Positions 3,128 through 64,000 of a stretch of DNA of 64,000 nucleotides are shown piece after piece (within the stretch, counting starts at the first letter, position 1; every line of letters starts with the position of its first letter). The notes below the pieces were generated by a model that ran no database searches, was not told the origin of the DNA, and saw nothing but the letters and a program-made list of their open reading frames with translations. Made by a program: the position numbers and the translations under genes. This DNA comes from Dictyostelium discoideum (Eukaryota), in the NCBI GenBank assembly GCA_000004695.1, contig CM000151.3, forward strand, positions 8,416,001 to 8,480,000. The letters run 5' to 3'.

Positions 3128-4009
3128 TTATTGAATTAAATTTTCAGGTAAATTAAATAATTTTACTAATTCTCTTGCAACACCATCTTGATCATTTGTA
3201 TATTGTGAAACTTTATTTGCAATTGATTTAGTGATATCAGTACCATTTGCTAAACAAATACCAAGACCAGATTGTTCTAACATTTCATTATCATTTTCAG
3301 CATCACCAAATGCTACGACTTTACTTGAATCAATTGATTTAGCTTTACAGAAATCAATGACTGATGTTCCTTTATTTACACCATGTTCAAGAAATTCTAC
3401 ATAGTATTGTTTGTAATCTTTATTCATACAATTTGATTTAACTAATGAAAGTGTTGGGAATAGTGGACGCATAGTTTCCAATAATTGATCACATTCTTTA
3501 TCATCATCTAAAATGATTAAACATTTGGCTGGTGTGAAATCCTCTGGTAATGTTGAATAACTTGGAATTAATTTATAGGTTGCACCAGTCATAATTGAAT
3601 AACGTCTTGGTTTTTCTGCCAATTCCGGTTTATCAATACCATATACGATACCATCACCATAGATATTTAAAAAGAGATTATTCTCTTCAACATATTTAAA
3701 GATGGCTTTGAGATTACTATTATCGATACTATGTGAGAATACTGTATTTCTACCCTCGGATTTACGACCAAAACAAATACTACCATTATATCCAATTAAA
3801 TAACAATCGATCCCTAATGCTTCTTCAACTGGTGAAACTAAATATGGTGCTCTTCCACTTGCTAATAATACTAAAACTTCTTCTCCATCAATATTTTTAA
3901 ATTCTGGTTTACTTATATATTGTAAAACTCTTTTACTATTTTCACTAACTTGTTTATTTGAATTTAAAATTGTACCATCAAGGTCAAGTGCAATTGCTCT
4001 ATAACTCAT
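3128..4009 (-). CDS. HAD-superfamily hydrolase, Cof-type (subfamily IIB) phosphatase.
   Basis: 293 aa. N-terminal motif I IALDLDGTIL and C-terminal FGDAENDNEMLEQSGLGICLANG (motifs III/IV) are typical of the Cof/YbiV-like HAD IIB family. Confidence 0.8.
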   Translation of the reverse strand: MSYRAIALDLDGTILNSNKQVSENSKRVLQYISKPEFKNIDGEEVLVLLASGRAPYLVSPVEEALGIDCYLIGYNGSICFGRKSEGRNTVFSHSIDNSNLKAIFKYVEENNLFLNIYGDGIVYGIDKPELAEKPRRYSIMTGATYKLIPSYSTLPEDFTPAKCLIILDDDKECDQLLETMRPLFPTLSLVKSNCMNKDYKQYYVEFLEHGVNKGTSVIDFCKAKSIDSSKVVAFGDAENDNEMLEQSGLGICLANGTDITKSIANKVSQYTNDQDGVARELVKLFNLPENLIQ

Positions 4010-47905: not shown

Positions 47906-49540
47906 ATGAGTCAGTTCATGATTAGATATCAAATTATAAACCTTTCAAAGGTTTTCAATTCACCAAAATCATTAAAGTATTTTTTTTTTTTTTTTTAAGG
48001 GTTGTTTTTAGAATTCTTTTCAATGGATGAATACTAATTTTTTTAAAAAAAAAAAAGTTTTATTAAAAGATATACAACATCAACAGCATCAACAACAACA
48101 ACAACAACAAATGATGATTCAAATTGGATATCAACACCAAATATTACAGTATGTGGTATTGGTGGTGGTGGTTGTAATAGTGTTAATAATATGATTAATA
48201 AAGAATTATATGGAATTGATTTTGTAGTTGCCAATACTGATGCACAAGCATTGGCAATATCATGTAGTAGAAAGATGGTACAATTAGGAAAGACATTAAC
48301 AAGAGGATTAGGAGCAGGAGCAGTACCAGAAGTTGGAAAGAAAGCAACTGAAGAATCAATTGAAGAATTAATGAATCAAATTGGTGATACACAAATGTTA
48401 TTTGTCACAGCTGGTATGGGTGGTGGTACAGGTACAGGTGGAGCAGCAGTTATTGCATCAGCAGCAAAAGCCAAAGGTATTTTAACTGTTGGTATTGTAA
48501 CCAAACCATTTCATTTCGAAGGTAAACATAGAATGAAATTGGCAGAACAAGGTTTGATAGAGTTGGAGAAATCAGTCGATAGTTTAATCGTTATTCCAAA
48601 TGAGAAATTAATGGAACAATCACAAGAACTCTATATTGGAAATGCTTTCCAAATGGTTGATGATGTACTTTACAATAGTATTCGTGGTATCTCTGATATT
48701 TTAGTTAAACCAGGTTTAATTAATTTAGATTTCGCCGATGTTAGATCGATCATGTGTAATAGTGGTAAAGCATTGATGGGTGTTGGAGAAGGTGAAGGTA
48801 AAGGTCGTGATGCTATCGCAGCCAATATAGCCTTAAATAATCCATTACTCGAGAATATTAATATCTCTGGTGCAAAAGGTGTCCTTTTAAATATTGCTGG
48901 TAGTGACTTAAAATTACAAGAAGTTGATCATATCGTTAGTTTGGTTAGTAGTAAAGTTGATCCTTCTGCTAATATCATCTTTGGTTCAACTTTTGATCAA
49001 CAATTAGAAGGTAAAATTAGAGTAACTTTAATTGTTACCGGTATGGATCAATTAATACAACAACAACAACAACAACAAAAACAAACTAAAATAGAATCTC
49101 AAGTAGAACAAAAATTACATTCAACAACAATTGTAGATCAAGAATTAAAACCAATTGAACCACAAAAATCAATAATTATAGAAGAAGAACAAGAAGAACA
49201 ACAACAACCAAAACCAATAATTCCTGGTATTTTTGTTGAACAAGAACTATTAACCACTACCACCACTGCTAATATCACACCATCACAACAAAAACAAGAA
49301 TCTTTAACTCAAAATAATATATTCTCACCACCACAACAACAACAACAACAACCATCAATTAATTTACAACCAAATTACCAACAATTATATCAACAATTAT
49401 ACCAACAACAACAACAACAACTACAACAACAACAACCAATAAGTTTTTTGAAAAGATTATCAAACCTTTTCTTTACAAATGGTAATAATAATAAACCTTA
49501 CAATAATAATAAAAATACTCCTGGTTCAAATTATGAATAA
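47906..49540 (+). CDS. fszA: Mitochondrial division protein FtsZ (FszA-like). Model join(47906..47976,48070..49540), about 513 aa.
   Basis: Core GIDFVVANTDAQAL, the tubulin/FtsZ signature GGGTGTGGAAVIA and a Gln-rich C-terminus. The essential N-terminal ITVCGIGGGGCNSVNNM lies upstream of the first in-frame Met, so a 5' exon is required. ATG at 47906 encodes a presequence-like MSQFMIRYQIINLSKVFNSPKSLK. Donor GTATTT at 47977 (phase 2) and acceptor AAAAG at 48068-48069 restore the frame. The 5' exon is inference. The size is closer to FszA than FszB, from memory. Confidence 0.75.
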
Positions 49541-51443: not shown

Positions 51444-52920
51444 ATGATATCAATCGAAGAAAATATTAAATACAAAGAAGGAACACTTTCAGTTTTGTCA
51501 TCTGATGGTAAATCATGGAAAAAGAGACATTGTGTATTTAAAAATAGAATTTTATTTATTTTTGAAAATAAAAATGTAAAAATAGTTTTTTTTTATATAT
51601 TCTATTTTTATTTTTTCGATTTTTTTCAAACATAAATTTTTTTTTTTTTCATCCCAAAATCTTTTTATTATTTTTTTTTTTTTCGATCCCAAAATCTTAC
51701 TAACCTTTTTTTTTTTTTTTATTATTTTTTAAAAATCAAATTCAACATCATCAAATTATCAAATTTTATATTTTATACCATTAGCAAGATGTGGATTAAT
51801 ATCAACAGCTATTAGTGGAGGACCAAATGGTAAATCATTTTGTTTCAAGTTATCACATGAAATTGATGAATCAATTCTTTATTGGTTATCTGATGAGAAT
51901 GAAGAATCAATGAAAGAATGGGTAAGAGTATTACAATTATCATGTGCAATTCAAAAGGAACCAGAGAAAGTTCAAGTTAAAGGTAGATCAAAATCTGTAG
52001 CATTTAAGCCAGGAGCAATAGAGATTGCAGGTATAACATCAGATCATAAAGGTTGGTTAAAAAAGTATACATCATCAGGTACATTTAGAAAAACACTTCA
52101 ATGGAAAAAGAGATGGTTCGTACTAAAGGATTTAGTACTCTATTATTATGAAGGACCAGAATCGAATCTAAAAGGAAAGATCTCCATTCCAAATTGGAGT
52201 GTAGAAATTGAAAAAACCATACCCATTGGTTATTGTTTTACATTATCTCATCCAGGTTATACACCAATTACCCTTCAAGCAGAGACAGAAGATGATCGTA
52301 AGAAATGGGTTCAAAAAATTAAAGATAACAATCGTAGCCTTACAAAATCTTTAGCAACTCCAAATGAAATCACAAGACTTTGTGATTGGTTTAAACAATT
52401 GACACAATTGGACATTAAAGAACCATTGGAGTTAGTTTGTAATGCTTCATTTGTTTCAAATATTTTGGAAAAAGTTGGTTTACATGTTGATTTACCTGAC
52501 AGAGATCATAAATCTCAAAGAAGTACTGATAACGATTGGTCTTTGTTAGCTTTTGATAATATAATTAAAGCTTGTCAATTTAAAGGTATTAAATTTGATC
52601 AAACTATTTTACCAGAAGATTTTATAATTGGTGATCCTGTTGTTTTAACTTTTATTATTTCAATAATGAATCATTTTAATCCAAACAGTAAACCATCTTT
52701 AATTATAACTTCAACACCATCAATAAATACAACAAATACAACAAATACAACAAATACAACAAATACAACAAATACAACAAATACAACAACAACAACCACT
52801 ACAACAACAACCAATACAAAAGAGCAACCATCAAATTCATCTGAAACATCACCACAAACAACACCAAGATCAATGGTTTCTGATATATCATCAGTTGCGA
52901 CTGATAGCGTTTCTGATAGT

Positions 52921-53006
<86 letters not shown>

Positions 53007-53463
53007 AATTTCAACAAGTAAAAGTTTAAGTTTTGATAGTAATAAAAAATCAAAAGTATCAACTCCAACAACTACAACAACTGATAAAAAAGATAAAAAA
53101 GATAAAGATACAAAATCAACACCAACTACGCCAAATACAACTTCACCAACTACAATTTCAATAAATCCAACTAATGCACCAACTCCATTGGAACCAAAAC
53201 CAATTGAATCAAAACCAATTGAAACTAAACCAACCGAAACTAAGCCAATTGAAGATATTAAAACAACCAAAACAACATCAACTCCAGTTAAACCACTTAA
53301 TATTCCTCCTCAAAGAACTTCAGATGATGTGGACATAGATATTATGAATTCATTAGATTTTGGTTTTGATGATGCTCCAACACCACCAACAATAACAACA
53401 ACAACTAAAACTTCAGTGGAAGTTGATTTAATTAATGAAATTATTGCAGAAACAGATGATAAC

Positions 53464-53530
<67 letters not shown>

Positions 53531-54296
53531 GCGGTACCGATAATAATAATAATAATAATAGTAAAGTTACAACACCAATTTCTACACCAACTTCAACACC
53601 AGTTAAATCAACATCACCAAGATTTGTTTCACCATATAGAAATTTAAAAAGAGTTGAAACTCATGATGTTTTAGGTGAATTTGATAAAATATTTTCATCA
53701 CTTTCAAAGACAGTTAAAAATTGTGAATTATGTAATGAACCAATCGCAAGTGATCCAATTGAAATACCTTGTGGTAAAGCTTGGCATAGACATCATTTTC
53801 AATGTTGTACTTGTTCAAAATCAATTCTTTGTATTGATGAAGAATTACCATATGTCGTTAGAGATGATAATATTTATTGTAAAGAAGATCATGATAAATT
53901 ATTTAAAGATGGTAATTGTTCAGAATGTAATAAATCATTAATGGTAATGTATTTTTTTTTTTTTTTTTTTTTATAATAATAAATAATTTTAATAAAATAG
54001 TTTTCATTTACTAACTATTTTATTTTTATTTTTAATTAAAAAAAAAATAGATTACATTTGCATATAAAGGAAATTTATTATGTAGAGAACATTATTTAAA
54101 TCATGTTGGTGATATGATTTGCCAAAGTTGTGAAGCACCAATTGGTAATAAATCTTATCAAACCTTTGAAGGTAAAAAATGGCATTTAGAACACTTTAAA
54201 TGTTCATATTGCAGTAAAAAATTACCAGATCCATTAGTTGCTAAATTTAAAAATTCAAAACCTTATTGCGGCACTTGTTCTGTAAAATTATTTTAA
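51444..54296 (+). CDS. PH-PH-LIM domain protein. Model join(51444..51575,~51785..53943,54051..54296), with the first junction uncertain.
   Basis: Exon 1 is PH strands b1-b2 ([34 protein letters not shown]). The large exon continues the same PH domain ([52 protein letters not shown]), then a second PH domain ([36 protein letters not shown]...[10 protein letters not shown]), a Thr/Asn/Pro-rich linker and LIM zinc fingers (CELCNEPI...[18 protein letters not shown]|[23 protein letters not shown]...CGTCSVKLF). The last intron, 53944..54050, is clean (GTAATG...AATAG, phase 0). For the first intron the only available acceptors (51783-51784 or 51787-51788) do not match the phase of the GTAAAA donors at 51576 and 51585. 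Confidence 0.65.
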
Positions 54297-54492
54297 TAAA
54301 TTTAAATTAAATTTTTTATTAATTTTTTTCATTCTTTTTTTTTTTTTTTTTTTTTTCCCACATTCCACAATTTATGCATGTTTAATTTCCCACATCACAT
54401 CAATTAAATTTTATTTTTTTTTTATTTTTATTTTTTTATTTTTATTTTTTTTTTATTTTTATTTTTTATTTTTTATTTTTTTTTTTTATCCC

Positions 54493-55194
54493 ATGAATTT
54501 CATTTTAAAAAATTCAATTAGAAATTTCAGTTCAAGTATATCAAATTATAGTAAAATGACAGGAAAAGTTGTAGTTAAAACCACTAATGCACCAGGTGCT
54601 ATTGGCCCATACAGTCAAGCAATTATTGCTAACAATCAAGTTTTCGTTTCTGGTTGTTTAGGTATTGATAAAGATGTATGTTGTTTTTTTATTACTATTT
54701 ATCATTTTCTTGATCAAAAAAAAAAATAAAAAAAAATAAGAAAGATAAAAAAAGATAAAAAAAAAGATAAAATGAAAAAACTTTAAATTAATAAACTAAT
54801 AATAATTAATTAAATAAATATTATTATTATTTTTAGACTATGCAATTCACATCTGAAACTGATGTTAGTATTCAAACTAAACTTGCTTTAACAAACATGA
54901 AAAACATTGTTGAAGCTGCTGGTTCATCAATGGAAAAAGTTGTTAAAACTACCATCTTATTAAAATCAATGGATGATTTCCAAGCTGTTAACACTGTCTA
55001 TTCTACTTGTAAGTGTTTACAATCAATGATTTATTAAATTAATAATTGGTTATTGATTCATATTAAAAACTAATTAAATTAATTTTAATAAAATAGTCTT
55101 CCCAGTTGACCCACCAGCTAGATCAACCTTTGCTGTTGCTTGTTTACCAAAGAATGCTTTAGTAGAAATTGAAGCTATTGCAATTCACCAATGA
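54493..55194 (+). CDS. RidA/YjgF/UK114-family reactive-intermediate deaminase, mitochondrial-type. Model join(54493..54675,54837..55008,55097..55194).
   Basis: A presequence-like N-terminus, then [27 protein letters not shown] | [58 protein letters not shown] | [28 protein letters not shown]. These are the YjgF/RidA signature blocks. Donors GTATGT at 54676 and GTAAGT at 55009, with acceptors TTTTAG at 54835-54836 and AATAG at 55095-55096. Confidence 0.85.
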
Positions 55195-55397
55195 ACCGAG
55201 GGTAAATCAAATAATATCATCAATTCAAAATTATAAATAATAAATAATAAGTAATAGTTTATTCTATTATTGTAAAAAAGAACTAAAATATAATAATAGT
55301 TTTTATTTTGTTTCCAAATATAAAAAAAAAAAAAAATATTACATAATATACATATTATATATTTATTTTATTGTTTTTTTTTTTTTTTTTTTATCAA

Positions 55398-55680
55398 TTA
55401 ATTATTCATATATTGACAAATAATATTCATTGCTTGACCACCAGGGAATCTACCTAATACACCACTAGTAGATTCAATTTCATTAAAAACTTTAACATTA
55501 TCACTAAAACAATTACTACTATTACTATTATTATTATTATTAATATTATTATCATCATTTTTCTTATTTATAATTTTATCAGCTTCAATCACTTTACAAA
55601 TTGTAAATGGTACTGGTTCATAAGAATGATCACCTGTTAAAACTGGTGTTGAATGATCACCTGTTAAACAAATTGTAAAC

Positions 55681-55714
<34 letters not shown>

Positions 55715-55747
55715 AATTATTAATTATTTTTAATTTTCTCTAATAGA

Positions 55748-55811
<64 letters not shown>

Positions 55812-57197
55812 CTAAACTTACATTTCCTTTGTTTTCATTTTGAGCAATTGCTAATTGTGAAATTATAAAATGTAACATTTTATCAATTTTCTCTAAGAAT
55901 TCAATTTTGAGAGGGGCATTTTTATCATGACCAGCATCATCTACTGCTTTAATATGTAAGAAACCAAATTGATATTTATCATTGTCAACATCCAATATAT
56001 TCTTTAATAAGGTATCAGCTTTTGATTGTAAGTTTGTATGATAATCACCTGTACCACCTTCAGATTCAATCACATCAATCTTTACAGACATACCTAAACC
56101 AGCGATAATACATGTTGGAGCAATCATAAATGCATTCATTCCATACTTTTGTTTAAAGGTTGGTGCCTCAACACAAACACCACAACCACGTAATAATACA
56201 ACATTTGCAACTGGTAAACCTTTTTCTCTTCTCTCTATATTAATTGGATGATTTTCTAATGCTTTTTGAATTTCATCTGATAATTCATTTACAATCTATA
56301 AATTAATAACAGTTAATAATAATTAAATAAAAAATTATTATTAATCATTTTTTATTATTTATTATTTATTATTTATTATTTATTTATTATTATTATTATT
56401 TTTTATTTGTTATTAAAAATAATTAATATATAATATATAAAATTTAAAATTAAAAAAAATATAAAAACTTACTTTACTTGTTAAAATGGAATCATGAGAA
56501 TTAATATCTAAAGGTGTTGCTTTTAATAATGGTAAATTATCTTTTAATGGATCAGTACCAGTGATTGAATCAGTAAGATTTGGACCTCTAACTCTTACAC
56601 CACATCTATGTTCAGTTGCATATTTTACATCTACTCTATAATTTGGAAATGATGGTAATTTAATACCTGTTAAATAATCACATAATGTTGGTCCAAGATG
56701 TTCAAAATTTCTATCTGCTCTTCTTAAAATAACAATTCCACTTGATTTATCTATTGTTGCAAAATTTGACTAAAAAATAAATTATTAAATTAAAAAAAAT
56801 ATAAATTAATATAAAATATAAATTGGTATCAAAATTTAAAATAAATAAAATAAAATATATTAAAAAAAAAATAAAAAAAATAAAAAAAAAAAAAAAATAC
56901 TTTAAAAGCAATATCACCTGGTTGCATATCTAAACCAGCACCCATTGATTCAAATGCACCTCTACCTCTATAATATTTTCTTGGATCATAACCTAAAATT
57001 GAAAGATGTGCTGTATCACTACCACATGCAAATCCTGGTTCAACTGGATCCATTACACCATTTATACCACTTGATGACATTGCATCCATTGTTGGCGTAT
57101 TTGCAACTTGTAATGTGGTTTTTCTTTCATATTGAGGTATTGATGTATCTGCAATACCATCAACCATAACAAATACCATTTTATTATTGTTACCCAT
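55398..57197 (-). CDS. Cofactor-independent phosphoglycerate mutase of the archaeal apgM type (metalloenzyme superfamily plus PhosphMutase domain). Model complement(join(55398..55679,55822..56295,56473..56769,56901..57197)), about 449 aa.
   Basis: Exon 1 has MVFVMVDGIADTS...ANTPTMD...PGFACGSDTAHLSILGYDPRKYYRGRGAFESMGAGLDMQPGDIAFK, the apgM N-terminal signature. Exon 4 has TGDHSTPVLTGDHSYEPVPF, the C-terminal metal-binding TADHSTP block. The introns are 131, 177 and 142 nt, and the last contains a 60-nt (TA)n run. All junctions are phase 0 with GTAAGT/GTATTT donors. Confidence 0.8.
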
Positions 57198-57831
57198 TTT
57201 CTTTCTTTTTTTTTTATTGAAACAATCCACAAGATAAAAAAAAAAAAAAAAAAAAATAAAAAAAAAAAAAAAATTAATTTTTCGTGCGAGAAATTAATTT
57301 TCAAACTATTTGTGCATAAAATTATTTAAAATTTGTTTTAATTTAAAAAAAAATAATAAAAAAATAACTTTTTCTTTTTTAATCAAATTTTAAATTGTTT
57401 ACTTAATCGCACACTTTTCCTATTTTGAATTTTTAAACCTCAAGGTTATCATAATAATATAAAAAATCAAGCAAAAATTTGGAAATTGTTTTTTTTTTAT
57501 TATAATAAAGGTTAGTTCATTTGAACAGTTTTGTTTACTAAAAAAATTATTGTTAAAAAAAATTATTGCTAAAAAAAAAATAAAAATAAAATTATAAAAA
57601 TAAAAAAATAAAAAATTATAATTTTCGAAGTTCATAGATATTTTGGTATGACAGGACAAACTTGTAAAAATTAAAAAAATTTGGGTGAAAAAAAAAATAT
57701 CAAATAAATTTTCTTTTTTTTTTTTTTTTTAATTTTATTTTTAGTAATCAAAAGATCTTTTAATCGATTTGGAGTTATAAAAAATGAATAATGTTACAAT
57801 TAATTTAGTTTTATTTACTATTTTTTTTTTT

Positions 57832-57955
57832 AAAAGATTTAAAAAAAAAATTTCCCCCTATTTTTAATATTGTTTTTTTAAAAGATTTAAAAAAAAAAAC
57901 TCCCCTATTTTTAATATTATTTTGTTAAAAGATTTAAAAAAAAAACTTTTTTACT
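57832..57955. repeat. 47-bp tandem repeat, 2.6 copies.
   Basis: aaaagatttaaaaaaaaaa[t]ttcccc[c]tatttttaatatt[g/a]ttttgtt is repeated head-to-tail at 57832, 57880 and 57927. Confidence 0.8.
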
Positions 57956-57984
57956 TTTTTTATTTTATTATTAATATTTTGAAA

Positions 57985-58125
57985 CCAAAAAAATAAAAAA
58001 TTAATTTAAAAATAATAAATTTTTGATTTTTTGGTTTAGTTCTATTAACGTCATACTTATAATTATCTGTTCGTATGTTTATTTTAAAGATTCGAATCTT
58101 TAATTCTTGCTATCCTTTTAACATC
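57985..58125 (+). repeat. Copy 0 of a ~170-bp module that also starts each large repeat unit (58860..59000 and 61660..61800).
   Basis: ttgattttttggtttagttctattaacgtcatacttataattatctgttcgtatgtttattttaaagattcgaatctttaattcttgctatcc aligns with ctgattttcggtttagtttcataacgaccttactttaatattatgtatgtttattttaagatacgagtctttctctatttctatccc at 58895 and with the copy at 61690. Identity is about 75%. Confidence 0.7.
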
Positions 58126-58140
58126 TTTCACTTAAAAATA

Positions 58141-58712
58141 AATACATTGGACCTTTCTGTGAATAATTGAATTAATTCTGAAAAAAAAAAGTTATTTTGA
58201 AAAAGATCGAGTTATCCCGGAAAAGATCAATCTTTTCGCTAAAAATTTTTCATTGGCCATATTATTTTTTTTTTTTAATTTTTTTCATTTATTCACAATT
58301 AAAATAAAAAATATAAAAATAAATAAATAAAATAAATAGTATGATTGACAAAAAAAATCAAAAATACCCCGGTAGGATTTATTTTTTATATGTAGTTTTT
58401 TTTTTTTGAAGTTCCTTTTTTTTTTTTGAAGTTCATTTTTTTTTATATTTTCTTTATTTCTCTATAAATACAACCAAATTTAATTCTACGATAGGTCTTA
58501 ACAAATATTGTTTAATATTATTTAAAATTTTTGTTTTAAATAATGTGTTTTATTAAAAAAAAAAAAAAACATGTGAAAAGTGAAAAATTTTTCAAAAAAA
58601 AATAAACTTTTTTCGAAATAACTGAATTTATTCCGGGATAACTCGATCTTTTTTAAAATATGCTGAGTTAATTATAATTAATTCAATTATCCACTGATAG
58701 GTCCATTATCAT
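58141..58712. mobile_element. About 570-bp element bounded by ~80-bp imperfect terminal inverted repeats (MITE/foldback-like, non-coding).
   Basis: The left arm 58141..58220 (cattggaccttt ctgtgaataattgaattaatt ... attttgaaaaagatcgagttatcccgg) is the reverse complement of the right arm 58633..58712 (ccgggataactcgatcttttttaaaat...aattaattcaattatccac...aggtccattatc). The inner 22 bp (aaaaagatcgagttatcccgg) is perfect, and overall arm identity is about 80%. The interior of about 410 bp is AT-rich with no ORF. It sits exactly between module copy 0 and the start of repeat unit A. Confidence 0.6.
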
Positions 58713-59526
58713 TTTTGTTAGAGACTCAAAACTAATTTAATTTTAAAGTTAGTATGAGCCCCAACAACTTTACAAATTTGCGCGTCTCCATGTAAAAATA
58801 TTTCATTTAATTTTAATTTTTATTTTTTAATTTTTTATTTTTTAAGTCGAAAAATAAAAAATTAAATTAAATTAAAATTTAAAAATAATAAAAATTCTGA
58901 TTTTCGGTTTAGTTTCATAACGACCTTACTTTAATATTATGTATGTTTATTTTAAGATACGAGTCTTTCTCTATTTCTATCCCTAACAATATAAATAATA
59001 ACGATTGATGAAGATTGATGAAGATTGATGAAGATTGATGAAGATTGATGAAGATTGATGTAGATTGATATAGGATTAGATAGATTGGAATAGTGCCAAT
59101 GACTTTTATTTTAACATAAGATGGAAATATTAAATAAATAATTAGATACAATCTTTATATAATTGCCTATACAATGACACCTCATGATGAAGAAGTCGAC
59201 TCTTCAGATTAGAGGAATAACAGTAGTATTTAAAACAAAATAAAAATGCATTACAATGGCCCTTCTGTTTGCAAGATTAACGCTGTACTGCTTAGGCGGT
59301 ACAACGACACTTCCTACTCACATTGTAAACATGCATCTTTTATAAAGTAATATAAAATAAGATTGTATCAATTAATTTAATAATATTCTAAATATAAACA
59401 ATGACACCTCAAACAGAGGAATAACTGTGTTGTTATATAAAAACAATGACACCTCAAACAGAGGAATAACTGTTATATAAAAGCAATGACACCTCAAACA
59501 GAGGAATAACGGTATTGTAATAATAT

Positions 59527-59748
59527 TAAGACACCACAATATATAATATTAGTGGAATAACAGTTAAACAAAGACACCACAATATAAATTATTAGTGGAA
59601 TAACAATTAAACAAAGACACCACAGTATAAATTATTAGTGGAATAACAGTTAAACAAAGACACCACAATATAAATTATTAGTGGAATAACAGTTAAACAA
59701 AGACACCACAGTATAAATTATTAGTGGAATAACAGTTATATAGATGTA
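59527..59748 (+). repeat. 43-bp tandem minisatellite (about 5 copies) inside repeat unit A, preceded by 3 copies of a related 33-bp repeat (59398..59512).
   Basis: caaagacaccaca[a/g]tataaattattagtggaataacagttaaa repeated head-to-tail. The related unit is caatgacacctcaaacagaggaataactgt. Unit B has a single copy at 62189..62231. Confidence 0.85.
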
Positions 59749-60008
59749 TTATTAATAAAAATAATTTAAGATAATATTTATTATCAATCAAATAAAGACA
59801 CCACAATAAAAATATATTAGTGGGATAACAGTTATAATATATTAATAATAATATCAATTATTTAATTTTAAAAATTAAAATAAATAAATTAAATAAATTA
59901 AATTAATTTAATTAAATAAATTAAATAAATTAAATTAAATATATTAAATTAAATTAAATAAATTAAATTATATAATTTAAAATTTAAAATAAATTGTTGG
60001 TGAAAGTA

Positions 60009-61195
60009 ATGACATCAACTACTACTCTTTCAAAGATAGCCATCCGTAAAGCCAAAGTGTCTTCCACCGCCAAATGTGCCGCTGAAGTGACCTCTGCCTC
60101 CGATGAAGCTATTTCTGTCCAAGCCAAACCAAAAAAGACCCTTCATCCCACTGAAGACGATGATTAACTTTATACTACCGAAAGCACGGACCTATCCGAG
60201 GCTGAAGTCAGAGAGAGAGCCTAAGAATTCAAAGACAACTCCATTGAAGCTAAAACCATTGATGCTTTTAAAAAATGATACCACTGCCTTCATCTTCATG
60301 AATCTCTTTACCATCTACTTCCCCCTGTCTCCTCCCCCCAACCCAACCTTGATGACCATTATGGACAATGTACTACATCAAATGAATTATTCCATTTGCT
60401 TCAACCTGACCAATATGAATCAGTGAAGAACAACGATAATTTGAAGGTGTAACTTTGAGGAAGCTTATCCACCGTAACTTTAGACCCAAGACTTTGGTTC
60501 CCGTCAAAACTGACTACGAAGCTGCTAAAATTAAAGTGGTCTAAGCCATTAGCCATTGTAACAACCACTCAGCCTAATATGTTAAAAAAAACATCGAAGC
60601 AAATATGAGTTACAACAATGTAATTAATCCGATGTATCTCATCCATGGTACTGCTGATGTTCAATTAGATTATCTAAGATCAATTTTAGATAATAATATC
60701 CTTGCTTTGTTAAAGATGGTTATACCAGACTGGTTACAAACTGATGTTGCAATCAAGCTCAACCCTCAAACCGATATCACCGAGTGTCGTGAAGCTATCA
60801 CCGAGTTGGTTCTTTTCAATACTGATAAGTTTTCTAGAAGAAGATCTTCCGATTCGGCATCGAATACTGATGAGAAGTTTCCAATGAAAAATAATCATGC
60901 TGTTCCAAATCATAACTCTCAAAGCAGGAATCACTTAGAGCTGAAATATAACCAAAGGTAAAAGATAATAAAATGGTAAATATCAACAAGATAAGAAACA
61001 GTTACATTGTTTATCGTCATAGCAAAGGCTATTGTCTCAATTGTAGTCGTTCAAATTACTCTACATCTTTATGTAATGCCGATACTGTCAAGGTCAAAGT
61101 CAATCCATCAAGTCCATAAGCCAAAAAGCAACAATGACTCGATGAAGGTGATGAGTACAAGTCTAAGATTTTAAATAAAAATTATAAAATTTCAC
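60009..61195 (+). pseudogene. Degenerate copy (copy A) of the repeat-encoded ORF, with multiple in-frame stops and frameshifts.
   Basis: It aligns to the unit B ORF (MTSTTTLSKIAIRKAKVSSTAKCAAEVTSASDEAISVQAKPKKTLHPTEDDD* versus MSSTTTPSKKAIRKAKVSSTAKRAAEVTTASDDAITVQVKSKKTLRPTEVDDE...). There is a TAA at 60164, further stops and frame changes so that three ORF-track pieces (60103.., 60605..) lie in different frames, and C->T-biased divergence at about 80% identity. The 3' part extends about 230 nt beyond the copy B ORF end. Confidence 0.7.
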
Positions 61196-61199
61196 AATA

Positions 61200-61510
61200 T
61201 CATCACCCCGAGAAAATGGATGGTAAAGAGATTCATGAAGATGAGAGCAGTGGCAGCATTTTTTTAAAGCATCAATGGTTTTAGCTTCAATGGAGTTGTC
61301 TTTGACTTCTTTGGCTCTTTCTACCTGACTTCGAGTTTGGATATGTCAGTTCTTACAGTTGTATAAATTTCTTCATCGTCTCCAATGGGATGAAGAGTCT
61401 TTTTTGATTTCACTTGAACTTGGGTAGCATCATCCGAGGCGAATGCACTTCAGCAGCACATTTGGTGGTGGAAGACACTTTGGCTTTACGAATGGCTTTT
61501 TTTGAAAGAG
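61200..61510 (-). repeat. Inverted partial copy (5' ~300 nt) of the repeat-encoded ORF, head-to-head with repeat unit B.
   Basis: The reverse complement of 61380..61510 reads ...aaaaaaagccattcgtaaagccaaagtgtcttccaccaccaaatgtgctgctgaagtgcattcgcctcggatgatgctacccaagttcaagtgaaatcaaaaaagactcttcatccc... It matches the N-terminal coding sequence of copies A and B. It is degenerate (stops) and breaks off after about 100 codons. Confidence 0.65.
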
Positions 61511-61519
61511 TAGTTGTTC

Positions 61520-63430
61520 TAGACTCAAAACTAAATTAATTTAAAGTTAGTATGAGCTCAACAACGTAACAAATTCGCGCATCTCCATGTAAAAATATTT
61601 CATTTAATTTTAATTTTTTATTTTTTCATTTGAAAAATAAAAAATTAAATTAAATAAAATAAAATTAAATTAAAATTTAAAAAAATAATAAAAATTCTGA
61701 TTTTCGGTTTAGTTTTCATAACGCCCTTACTTTTAATTATCTCTTTTATATATGTTTACTTTTATGATATTAGTCTTTCACTCTTTCTATCCTTCATATT
61801 AAAAAACATTACTTTAAAGATTGGACAGTTTGATTAAAGATTGAACAAATGTGACAATGGATTGAAGATTAGTGTGAGTGAATTTTACACTTTTTTTTCT
61901 AATTTTAACATAAAACAAATACATTAAAACAAATAATTAGATACAATCCTTATATTTCGTATACAATGGCACCTCATGATGAAGAAGTCGACTCTTCAGA
62001 TTAGAGGAATAACAGTAGTATTTAAACAAAATAAAAATGCATTACAATGGCCCTTCAGTTTGCAAGATTAACGCTGTACTGCTTAGGCGGTACAACGACA
62101 CTTCTTACTCACATTATAAACATGCATCTTTTATAAAGTAATATAAAATAAGATTGTATCAATTAATTTAATAATAATGCTCAAATACAAAGACACCACA
62201 ATATAAATTATTAGTGGAATAACAGTTAACATATATTAATACTTATATTAATTATTTAATTAAAAATTAAATTAAATTAAATTAAATAAATTAAATTAAA
62301 TTATAAAATTAAATTATAAAAATTAAATTATAAAATTAAATTATATTTAATAAATTTTATATATAATTGTTGGTGAAAGTCATGTCATCAACTACTACTC
62401 CTTCAAAGAAAGCCATCCGTAAAGCCAAAGTGTCTTCCACCGCCAAACGTGCCGCTGAAGTGACAACCGCCTCCGATGATGCTATTACTGTTCAAGTAAA
62501 ATCAAAAAAGACTCTTCGTCCCACTGAAGTCGATGATGAAATTTATTCAACTGAAAGCACTGATGTATCCGACGTCGAAGTCAGAGAGAAAGTGCCAAAG
62601 AAATCAAAGACCAATTCCATTGAAGCTAAAACCATTGACGCTTTAAAAAATGCTGCCACTGCTGTCATCTTCATGAATCTCTTTACCATCCACTGCTCCC
62701 AGAATGGTGTTGAACCAACCTTGAAGACCATTATGGACAATGGTGCTGCATCAAATGAATTATTTCAATTGCTTCAACCTACCCACAATGAATCAGTTAA
62801 GAACATTGAAGAAGGTGGAGCATTGAAGAAGCTAATACACCGTAACTTTATATCCAAGACTTTGGTTCCATTCAAAACTGACTACGAAGCTGCCAACACT
62901 AAAGTAGTAGAAGCTATTAACCATCGTAACTGCTACTCAGCCCAAGATGTTATAAAAAACATCGAAGCCATTATGAGTTACCACAATGTAATTAATCCGG
63001 TGTATCTAATCCATGGTACTGCTGAAGTTCAATTAGAGTATCTAAGATCAATTTTAGATAATAATATCATTGCTTTGTTAAAGATGGTCGTACCAGACTG
63101 GTTACAAACTGATTAATCAAACTCAACACTCAAACCGATATCACCGAGTGTCGTGAAGCCTTCACCGAGTTGGTTCTTAACAATGCTGATAAGTTCTCGA
63201 GAAGAAGACCTTCCGATTCCGCATCGAATACTGATGAGAAGTTTCCATTAAAAAAGAATCATGCTACTCCAAATCATAACTCTAATAACAGGAATTCCTT
63301 TGATGCACAAGCTGATAAGATTAGAGCTGCAATATTACCCGAAATAAGAAAAGACTCTAAGGTAGACCTCAAAAAGATAAGAAGCAGCACAGCGGCGAAA
63401 ATCAACACTTTAAAGCACCTTTAAATCCAA
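61520..63430 (+). repeat. Repeat unit B, the compact version of unit A: upstream module 61520..62381 plus the ORF.
   Basis: Collinear with unit A apart from the minisatellite copy numbers. See the unit A evidence. Confidence 0.75.
62382..63424 (+). CDS. Repeat-element-encoded ORF (copy B, best preserved). 245 codons to a TAA at 63117, then about 100 further codons in frame after the stop (63120..63424).
   Basis: ATG at 62382 (MSSTTTPSKKAIRKAKVSSTAKRAAEV...HGTAEVQLEYLRSILDNNIIALLKMVVPDWLQTD*). Relative to copy A (..LQTDVAIKLNPQTDITECREAITELV..), copy B has an indel converting GATGTTGCAATCAAGCTCAACCCTC to GATTAATCAAACTCAACACTC, which creates the TAA. Downstream ...KLNTQTDITECREAFTELVLNNADKFSRRRPSDSASNTDEKFPLKKNHATPNHNSNNRNSF... 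continues the homologous frame (ORF 63170..63424). Basic N-terminus. I recognise no enzymatic motifs. It may be a nucleic-acid-binding ORF1-like protein of a retroelement. Family not identified. Confidence 0.5.
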
Positions 63431-63543
63431 GTACTCTTTTTAATATATATTAATAAGTATACTTAATAAGTAATACTTAATAAGCACACTTAATAAGTAT
63501 TGTTGTAGGGAATTTTTTTTGAAATTTCGCTTTCTAAACGGCA

Positions 63544-63595
63544 GTGAATTTTTACACTAAAATACGCTGTTTATGCATGGTGTAAAAATTCACTA
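63544..63595. other. Perfect 15-bp inverted repeat (hairpin, 22-nt loop) at the 3' boundary of repeat unit B.
   Basis: agtgaatttttacac (63544-63558), then taaaatacgctgtttatgcatg, then gtgtaaaaattcact (63581-63595). Just upstream is a 12-bp tandem repeat (acttaataag[t/c]a x4, 63452..63508). Confidence 0.7.
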
Positions 63596-63836
63596 AATTT
63601 TTTTTTTTTATAATTAAATTAAAAAACAATTTATTTAATCAAAAAAATTAAAAACCAATTTTATTCAGTTATTTGCTTGTTTATTTATTTTTTTATAACA
63701 AAAAAATTTAGTTTGCGCCATTTTTTTTTTTTTTTTTTTTTTTCAAATTATTTTTTTCAATTTTTTTTTTTATCGATTGTTTTCATTTTTGGGGAATAAA
63801 ATAAAATTGTTCGATAAAAAAAAAATTGAAAAAAAT

Positions 63837-63883
<47 letters not shown>

Positions 63884-64000
63884 GGTTTATATTTTAATTA
63901 TGGTATTCATATAATTATTTTTAGTATTTATATTATTTATAATTATAAACTCGAGTTAATAGAATTATTATTATTATTATTATTATTTAAATGCGGGTCA

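Follow-up and report, generated by a model that had tools for sequence, protein, structure and literature searches.

The stretch analysed here, hereafter the window, comprises 64,000 nucleotides of Dictyostelium discoideum (contig CM000151.3 of assembly GCA_000004695.1, forward-strand positions 8,416,001 to 8,480,000), which we take to lie on chromosome 2 of strain AX4. Its GC content ranges over ~18-34%, the highest value being reached over the open reading frames (ORFs) of a repeat cluster near its 3' end. Read from left to right, the cluster contains an old fragment resembling a long terminal repeat (LTR), a 588-bp element with inverted ends, a first direct repeat unit (unit A), a short inverted piece, a second direct unit (unit B) and the terminus of a DNA transposon (Table 1). 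A preliminary description of the same DNA had recognised a mobile-element cluster in mixed orientations and had left it unclassified. We now consider it very probable (roughly 0.9) that unit A, the inverted piece and unit B are three truncated, dead copies of Skipper-1, which is an LTR retrotransposon and, more exactly, a Ty3/gypsy chromovirus, and that they lie in a transposon graveyard within a gene-rich arm of the D. discoideum AX4 chromosome. The Skipper family was reportedly described by Leng et al. in 1998, and both the family and probably the locus were already known; as annotation, placing an "unclassified" cluster in Skipper-1 is a small gain.

A repeat finder spaces the two direct units 2791-2800 bp apart, start to start, over their upstream parts and 2364-2373 bp apart over their ORF parts, which differ because the number of internal repeats varies; the ORF blocks of the two units are 83-88% identical. 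Like the other pieces of the preliminary description, its two direct units are real and far above chance expectation, with limits that move from 58713-61195 and 61520-63430 to 58716-61207 and 61515-63387, and the sequence that it had taken as their common start ('agactcaaaactaa', 'agactc') lies 6 nt inside an LTR, which begins TGTTAGAGACTC. When a complete relative (the L003 element, described below) was aligned to the window by blastn, unit A corresponded to Skipper positions 1-2350 at 83-86% identity, the inverted piece, on the minus strand, to positions 1140-1442 at 86%, and unit B to positions 1-2147 at 95-96%; outside 57.9-63.5 kb, the same comparison returned only low-complexity matches in the window.

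Table 1. Features of the Skipper-1 cluster and its edges, in window coordinates.
Feature	Position	Strand	Details
47-48-bp tandem repeat	57825-57969		~3 copies (Tandem Repeats Finder, TRF); overlaps left end of LTR-like fragment
Old diverged Skipper-LTR-like fragment	57947-58117	+	LTR positions ~113-295; alignment score 116 against shuffle mean 37.3, sd 5.4
588-bp element	58133-58720		~117-nt imperfect terminal inverted repeats; blastn self-inverted 78-81%, E=1.6e-13; DNA fold z=-10.4
Unit A 5' LTR	58716-59108	+	End approximate; ~83% to canonical LTR (Skipper 1-705 = 58716-59412 at 83.3%; LTR alignment 82.9%)
Unit A leader (5' untranslated region)	59109-60008	+	40-45-bp repeat x2.8 (59392-59511), 43-bp repeat x4.9 (59528-59738), AT-rich AAATT-type array (59872-59995)
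Unit A gag pseudogene	60009-61207	+	Up to Skipper 2350 (start of pol region); 691-2350 = 59568-61207 at 85.9%; coding part 86.6% (tblastn with Gag P0001, blastn)
Inverted gag fragment	61217-61518	-	Skipper 1140-1442, Gag codons ~2-104; blastn 86.2%, tblastn frames -2/-3
Unit B 5' LTR	61515-61889	+	375 bp, starts TGTTCTAGACTC; 14-nt internal deletion; 96.3% to canonical 390-bp LTR
Unit B leader	61890-62381	+	One 43-bp unit left (62184-62229); blastn Skipper 1-733 and 919-2147
Unit B gag	62382-63387	+	Codons 1-339 of 382; 97.9% DNA identity to canonical (tblastn)
Probable MITE excision footprint	63106-63118		AX4 GAT-T-AATCAAAC
Terminal 113 bp of ~5.5-kb DNA transposon with terminal inverted repeats	63388-63500	-	Terminus CACAGCGGCGAAAATC; 98.2% to L002 18120-18232; TRF 63446-63500
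Potential hairpin 1	60017-61518	+	Arms 60017-60320 / 61214-61518; stem ~300 bp, loop 893 nt
Potential hairpin 2	61217-62692	+	Inverted piece / 62390-62692; stem ~300 bp; the 871-nt loop includes LTR and leader of unit B

The identity of the family is carried by the ORF of unit B, which has 82 protein matches, all of them in Dictyostelium and the best being 382-aa proteins named 'Gag' in UniRef (97% identity, E=2.8e-143). Intact Gag has 382 aa with a C-terminal C-x2-C-x4-H-x4-C knuckle and ends in ...CLNCGKSNHSTSTC; no Pfam family was found for it (P0001). Through an identical Gag (P0006) we reached three loci in another D. discoideum assembly, L001 to L003, two of which (L001 and L003) have a 1,376-aa pol after gag, the pol of L002 being interrupted by an insertion. 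The L003 element served as reference. It is 6,997 bp long, with gag, pol and 390-bp LTRs that are 100% identical to each other (TGTTAGAG...TTTTACA), and the canonical leader of 741 bp holds 4.0 copies of a 43-bp unit. In the pol of the L003 element, the Pfam families RVT_1, RT_RNaseH, Integrase_H2C2 and rve were matched, and a Chromo match at its C-terminus was weak (E=0.0012, below Pfam's cutoff). The published Dd-Skipper-1 measures 6,998 bp with 390-bp LTRs and has ~60 copies, including 2 of full length; it is without tRNA specificity, its Gag contains CX2CX4HX4C, and a polypyrimidine tract replaces its primer-binding site (Spaller et al. 2016, PMC5006619). As these are the properties of the L003 element, the family is Skipper-1, and the ORF that had seemed unassignable to any named family is Skipper-1 Gag. 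Both direct units carry the 390-bp family LTR, as 5' LTRs only (96.3% identical to the L003-element LTR in unit B, 82.9% in unit A). Directly after the LTR of unit B stands a polypyrimidine tract, as in the L003 element (...TTTTACA followed by CTTTTTTTTC at 61889/61890); from unit A it has been deleted. What had been described as a "5' minisatellite module" is, by blastn and TRF alignment, Skipper's own 5' LTR plus leader with a variable number of 43-bp repeats (1 in unit B, 4.0 in the canonical element and 4.9 in unit A).

Neither reverse transcriptase (RT) nor integrase is found within the window, as the preliminary description had correctly stated. It had gone on to suggest the ORF1 of a non-LTR element, such as a tRNA-targeted TRE element, with ORF2 and RT beyond the window end, or else a new non-autonomous family, a reading with which the missing RT and integrase agree, as do the basic N-terminus of the ORF and its lack of a Pfam match. 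We give this explanation a negligible chance. The alignment of the units with an entire gag-pol element bearing 390-bp LTRs extends through LTR, leader and gag, and the tRNA gene expected near an element boundary does not appear, ARAGORN having called none in the 64-kb window, nor in the related loci L004 and L005; a permissive Rfam search of 57000-64000 likewise gave zero matches. In the orthologous segment of another strain, moreover, unit B is followed not by an ORF2 but by a DNA-transposon terminus, miniature inverted-repeat transposable elements (MITEs) and scraps only. The Skipper ORF2 (protease-RT-RNase H-integrase-chromodomain) is absent from the window copies, which end at Skipper 2350 and 2147 and are therefore fragments rather than complete Skipper-1 members.

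The ORFs of ~350 codons that had been supposed for the direct units are not intact. In unit A, gag is interrupted by 7 or more in-frame stops and 2 or more frameshifts, and its CCHC knuckle is degraded to CLNCSRSNYSTSLC (tblastn), the longest open frame being 118 aa. Its 78 transitions against 82 transversions, and 64 GC>AT against 51 AT>GC changes, reveal no bias of the kind left by repeat-induced point mutation (RIP) or deamination in this unit, and this unbiased spectrum points to ordinary decay. The gag of unit B, which stops at codon 339 of 382, has a 2-codon deletion and one frameshift at ~63110-63115, with the knuckle beyond the truncation point, and retains open frames of 244 and 84 aa. 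Judged by its identities (gag 97.9%, LTR 96.3%), unit B is a young copy; its private residues occur in none of the Gag matches retrieved from other strains. Because pol and the 3' LTR are missing and both gag copies are broken, all three copies are, on sequence grounds, incapable of transposition; pol and the 3' LTRs were presumably removed by later deletions, which replaces the idea of a second ORF continuing past the window.

These defects bear directly on the AX4 annotation. The gene model DDB_G0277781 (293 aa, 'hypothetical protein'; P0010) is 100% identical to the unit B ORF (62382-63424), a match that also upholds the earlier attribution of the cluster to Dictyostelium. It is the broken gag of unit B: an artificial intron jumps the footprint at the frameshift, and the residues at its C-terminus, TAAKINTLKHL, are translated from the end of the DNA transposon. 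The consequence for the annotation is that DDB_G0277781 is shown to be a broken gag.

Between the direct units, the inverted ORF copy of the preliminary description is present at 61214-61518, where it matches 60017-60320 and 62390-62692, but it is truncated at its 3' and not its 5' end, retaining codons ~2-104. A 9-nt filler (61208-61216) connects it with unit A at a point where Skipper 2350 meets 1442, and as no LTR end lies at this joint, we read it as the product of a deletion or a rearrangement. Unit A and the inverted piece, which lie tail to tail, have in common 9 substitutions and one indel that are derived with respect to unit B and the consensus; each also has 20-21 private changes, and the arms are 84% identical to one another, which together makes the two old relatives. 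On its other side, the inverted piece is met by the complete LTR end of unit B, which begins at its edge, at inverted-gag codon ~2-4. The simplest reading of this placement is that unit B would have inserted into the gag of an older, oppositely oriented Skipper copy, and we regard such an integration as the most likely history, in keeping, at least in part, with the earlier proposal that the cluster arose by repeated insertion of an element into copies of itself.

A local segmental duplication, in which a host gene or a single element copy was repeated in tandem and no independent insertions took place, would offer a ready account of two direct units at a regular ~2.8-kb spacing, and the 9 derived substitutions common to unit A and the inverted fragment might reflect the inverted duplication of one copy. 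This seems to us very improbable. Units A and B differ by ~13%, and unit B matches the active consensus at 96-98%, so that they represent different subfamilies and ages; unit B has an entire LTR end at its start; the family exists in many dispersed copies (~60, PMC5006619); and the ORF encodes a retroviral-type Gag and not a cellular gene. The preliminary description had allowed that its units might prove to be single-copy members of a conserved cellular gene family, and the multicopy family of Gag sequences, with its 82 protein matches, speaks against this.

The arrangement can be followed in other strains through two orthologous loci, L005 and L006, which were found by means of a RidA-like product (P0204). 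L005 (D. discoideum GCA_054883475.1, strain ACTFIT) is collinear with window positions 54000-64000 at ~99% and has the whole cluster. It departs from AX4 in two respects, namely ~94 bp fewer in the 43-bp array of unit A and a 752-bp element in the gag of unit B. On the same contig, 4.8 kb to the right of L005, a further locus (L004, reached via P0191, DDB_G0277821) is not an orthologous segment and is full of DDT-like fragments, which makes the Skipper cluster the left edge of a larger transposon island. In L006, from a more distant assembly of D. cf. discoideum, the flanking genes are 90-95% identical and homology ends at the start of the phosphoglycerate-mutase-like gene. The whole island may be absent there, an "empty site" that is only suggestive because the right flank is unanchored. 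Within 450 bp after the phosphoglycerate-mutase-like gene, L006 (12593-15878) has two epimerase genes and no Skipper or transposon sequence.

Comparison of the strains also places the frameshift of unit B. At this site canonical Skipper reads GATGTTGCAATCAAAC and L005 reads GATGTTGCAA[CACAGCAAAG...CTTTGCTGTG]AATCAAAC, with a 2-bp duplication; the inserted 752-bp element (L005 18536-19287), which has perfect 15-nt inverted ends (CACAGCAAAGAAAAA), lies in the gag of unit B exactly where AX4 has its frameshift. No single simple deletion would turn the canonical sequence into the AX4 junction, for which an excision footprint is the best reading, and the frameshift of unit B is probably the trace of imprecise excision of the 752-bp MITE. 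The two strains together suggest recent cut-and-paste activity of this MITE in D. discoideum, for which they provide a clean candidate involving a small DDT-like element. The MITE is multicopy, with copies 97-98% identical (L001 8267-9025 and 15910-16668; L004 17068-17833; L005 20427-20702) that often adjoin or sit inside Skipper or DDT-like sequences. One copy lies 261 bp past the equivalent of the window end in L005, and is expected ~260 bp beyond the 3' end of the window if AX4 matches. Its sequence includes tRNA-like T-arm motifs (GGTTCGAATCC, GGGATTCGATCCCC), at which ARAGORN called no tRNA.

The right edge of unit B is set by the DNA-transposon terminus, which cuts it at 63387/63388, equivalent to Skipper position 2147. 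In L002 (12671-18232) a related insertion of 5,562 bp splits another Skipper at position 3800/3801. This ~5.5-kb transposon has CACAG(C/G)G.CGAAAA inverted termini, subterminal arrays of a 13-bp repeat (TATACTTAATAAG) that span several hundred bp, and an 816-aa ORF of the DDB_G0267250 family with a weak C2H2/RING-like N-terminus, whose cluster members are all named 'hypothetical protein'. No Pfam domain was found in this ORF, and the transposase class appears uncharacterised by Pfam. We provisionally call the transposon DDT-like. DDT elements are reported to accompany Skipper, with which they are co-enriched (PMC2665215). Just past the terminus, a 15-nt perfect inverted repeat occupies 63536-63597 (AGTGAATTTTTACAC ... 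GTGTAAAAATTCACT), one arm of which is similar to the LTR of Skipper at its 3' end (GTGAATTTTACA), possibly by chance.

The arrangement of the three copies has a further consequence. With an inverted gag between two direct gag copies, a transcript of the plus strand is predicted to fold into a ~300-bp stem, and the inverted piece is the central arm of both of two alternative hairpins. The RNA minimum-free-energy folds give -570 kcal/mol for hairpin 1, with the arms paired end to end, and -579 kcal/mol for hairpin 2. A plus-strand transcript, started for example in the LTR of unit A, would contain gag in sense and then in antisense orientation, and once folded its ~300-bp double-stranded stem and ~0.9-kb loop would form a substrate for Dicer.

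A locus of this kind has been published. Hinas et al. (2007) reported a hairpin with a ~320-bp stem and a ~900-nt loop in an incomplete piece of Skipper carried by chromosome 2 and proposed that all eight Skipper small RNAs they had cloned came from it, leaving the precursor open; some of the eight have a further match on the opposite strand at another place in that fragment, and levels of Skipper small RNAs go up in development and in drnA-/rrpC- strains (PMC2175303). [quoted passage not shown] Going by chromosome, element type and stem/loop geometry, we think it likely that the cluster in the window is the locus of Hinas et al. Our analysis would then establish the sequence layout of the hairpin locus that is very probably the only one reported as a source of Skipper small RNAs, and at which two hairpins are possible, and, the hairpin structure being common to a second strain, it makes a single-locus test of transposon control straightforward.

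Several points weigh against this account as a whole. No 3' LTR or target-site duplication survives to order the events, that is, to tell nested insertion from local inverted duplication. The arms are 84% (unit A and inverted piece) and 87% (inverted piece and unit B) identical, so that the double-stranded RNA would be imperfect. The published locus was matched by chromosome, element type and geometry of stem and loop, and further Skipper fragments occur on chromosome 2, 15 of them in its outer centromere-like region and 2 in the inner one (PMC2665215). Finally, Skipper-1 is said to be enriched in centromeric transposon clusters, yet ordinary genes border this cluster on the left; on the right, in the contig of L005, it runs on into DNA-transposon fragments, as the left edge of the larger island.

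The same Skipper-1 graveyard could accordingly be one whose inverted arrangement is inert, being neither the Hinas locus nor a source of functionally relevant small RNAs. The identification by geometry and the 84-87% arm identity would fit such a view, as would the fact that just eight Skipper small RNAs were ever cloned, with their precursor left open. We hold it to be fairly unlikely, given that chromosome and element agree with the published description, as do a ~300-bp stem and an 871-893-nt loop (~320 bp and ~900 nt there), that the opposite-strand matches of the small RNAs fit a locus with gag in both orientations, and that the arrangement is kept in a second strain. Returning to the reading of the cluster as the published hairpin locus, its small RNAs might be expected to silence active Skipper copies in trans. 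The stronger proposal, that this is a retained trans-silencing locus in which the unit A LTR drives a gag hairpin whose small RNAs hold the few intact Skipper-1 copies in check, is speculative and on our assessment doubtful. If true, it would explain both an arrangement common to strains and the persistence of only two intact Skipper copies.

Further sequence features of the units are of interest in their own right. In the LTR of unit A, a 10-bp repeat (GATTGATGAA) has expanded to 6.7 copies at 59003-59069 (TRF), and the strain difference of ~94 bp in its 43-bp array (59528-59738; ~15028-15150 in L005) amounts to about two units. Each leader repeat unit holds GACACC[A/T]C, a loop and G[T/A]GGAATAAC (59176-59830, 61968-62017 and 62192-62229; Skipper 471-965). 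This composite motif occurs 12 times in the cluster, 6 times in the canonical element and nowhere else in the window. Its variable base and the partner of that base always change together (CCAC...GTGG or CCTC...GAGG), and the loops measure 5, 14-15 or 28 nt. In the leader of an element that is without a normal primer-binding site, the motif may form a small stem-loop or serve as a dyad binding site.

To the left of unit A, the third copy of the upstream module that had been noted earlier is the old LTR-like fragment, which is 77% identical to the unit A LTR (blastn). Between this fragment and unit A sits the 588-bp element, whose terminal inverted repeats, also seen before, are borne out by arms of 117 nt. 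It is without an ORF, on the right it adjoins the LTR of unit A or overlaps it by that LTR's first 5 nt, and it is 100% identical in the orthologous L005; ~125 kb of Dictyostelium loci and the remainder of the window yielded no second copy. It could be either a MITE, of thug or DDT type, or a local inverted duplication. A similarity to the LTR inside it was judged to be low-complexity A/T sequence and set aside. The neighbours further left are ordinary genes: a homologue of FtsZ (48191-49540), a PH/LIM-domain protein in two exons (51910-54297), a RidA/L-PSP-like gene in three exons (54493-55195), whose 150-aa product is identical to P0204, and, on the minus strand, an archaeal-type cofactor-independent phosphoglycerate-mutase-like gene that ends at ~57190. 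The first exon of the last, used as a protein query, returned only short plant and metagenome matches and none from Dictyostelium. An intron at ~55750-55810 contains a long (TA)n microsatellite.

Set beside known systems, the window copies resemble Skipper-1 in their LTR, in a leader with 43-bp repeats, in the polypyrimidine tract after the LTR, in gag (96-98% for unit B, 83-87% for unit A) and in having no tRNA association, and they differ from it in consisting of a 5' LTR, leader and partial, broken gag, without pol and without a 3' LTR. Unit A and the inverted piece form an older, diverged Skipper subfamily resembling, by eye and unaligned, Gag variants of other strains such as P0009. The TRE5/TRE3 elements of the same genome are alike in the modular build of their untranslated regions and in the size of ORF1. 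TRE5 elements, however, sit ~50 bp upstream of a tRNA gene and TRE3 elements ~100 bp downstream of one, and both have an ORF2 with endonuclease/RT and are without LTRs; membership was ruled out on the lack of tRNA genes in the 64 kb, on units that begin with LTRs and on full relatives with an integrase-type pol. DIRS-1, a tyrosine-recombinase retrotransposon with inverted LTRs and an internal complementary region, was also rejected, since the LTRs of the full-length relatives are in direct orientation, their integrase is of the DDE type, and the inverted piece is gag coding sequence and not LTR.

With the locus of Hinas et al. the cluster has in common chromosome 2, a partial Skipper, a stem of ~300 bp against ~320, a loop of 871-893 nt against ~900, and gag on both strands; the paper draws one hairpin, whereas two alternatives are possible in the window. 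The Mu killer locus of maize is an inverted-duplicate transposon locus that triggers trans-silencing. Skipper small RNAs differ from that system in rising in drnA- and rrpC- mutants, and the two loci are alike in anatomy, a rearranged partial inverted copy lying beside a promoter-bearing copy, from which a hairpin RNA would arise that has homology to the active element in its 5' part. Were silencing in trans to be true of this locus, it would be comparable to Mu killer, or to a small trap resembling a piRNA cluster, in an amoeba.

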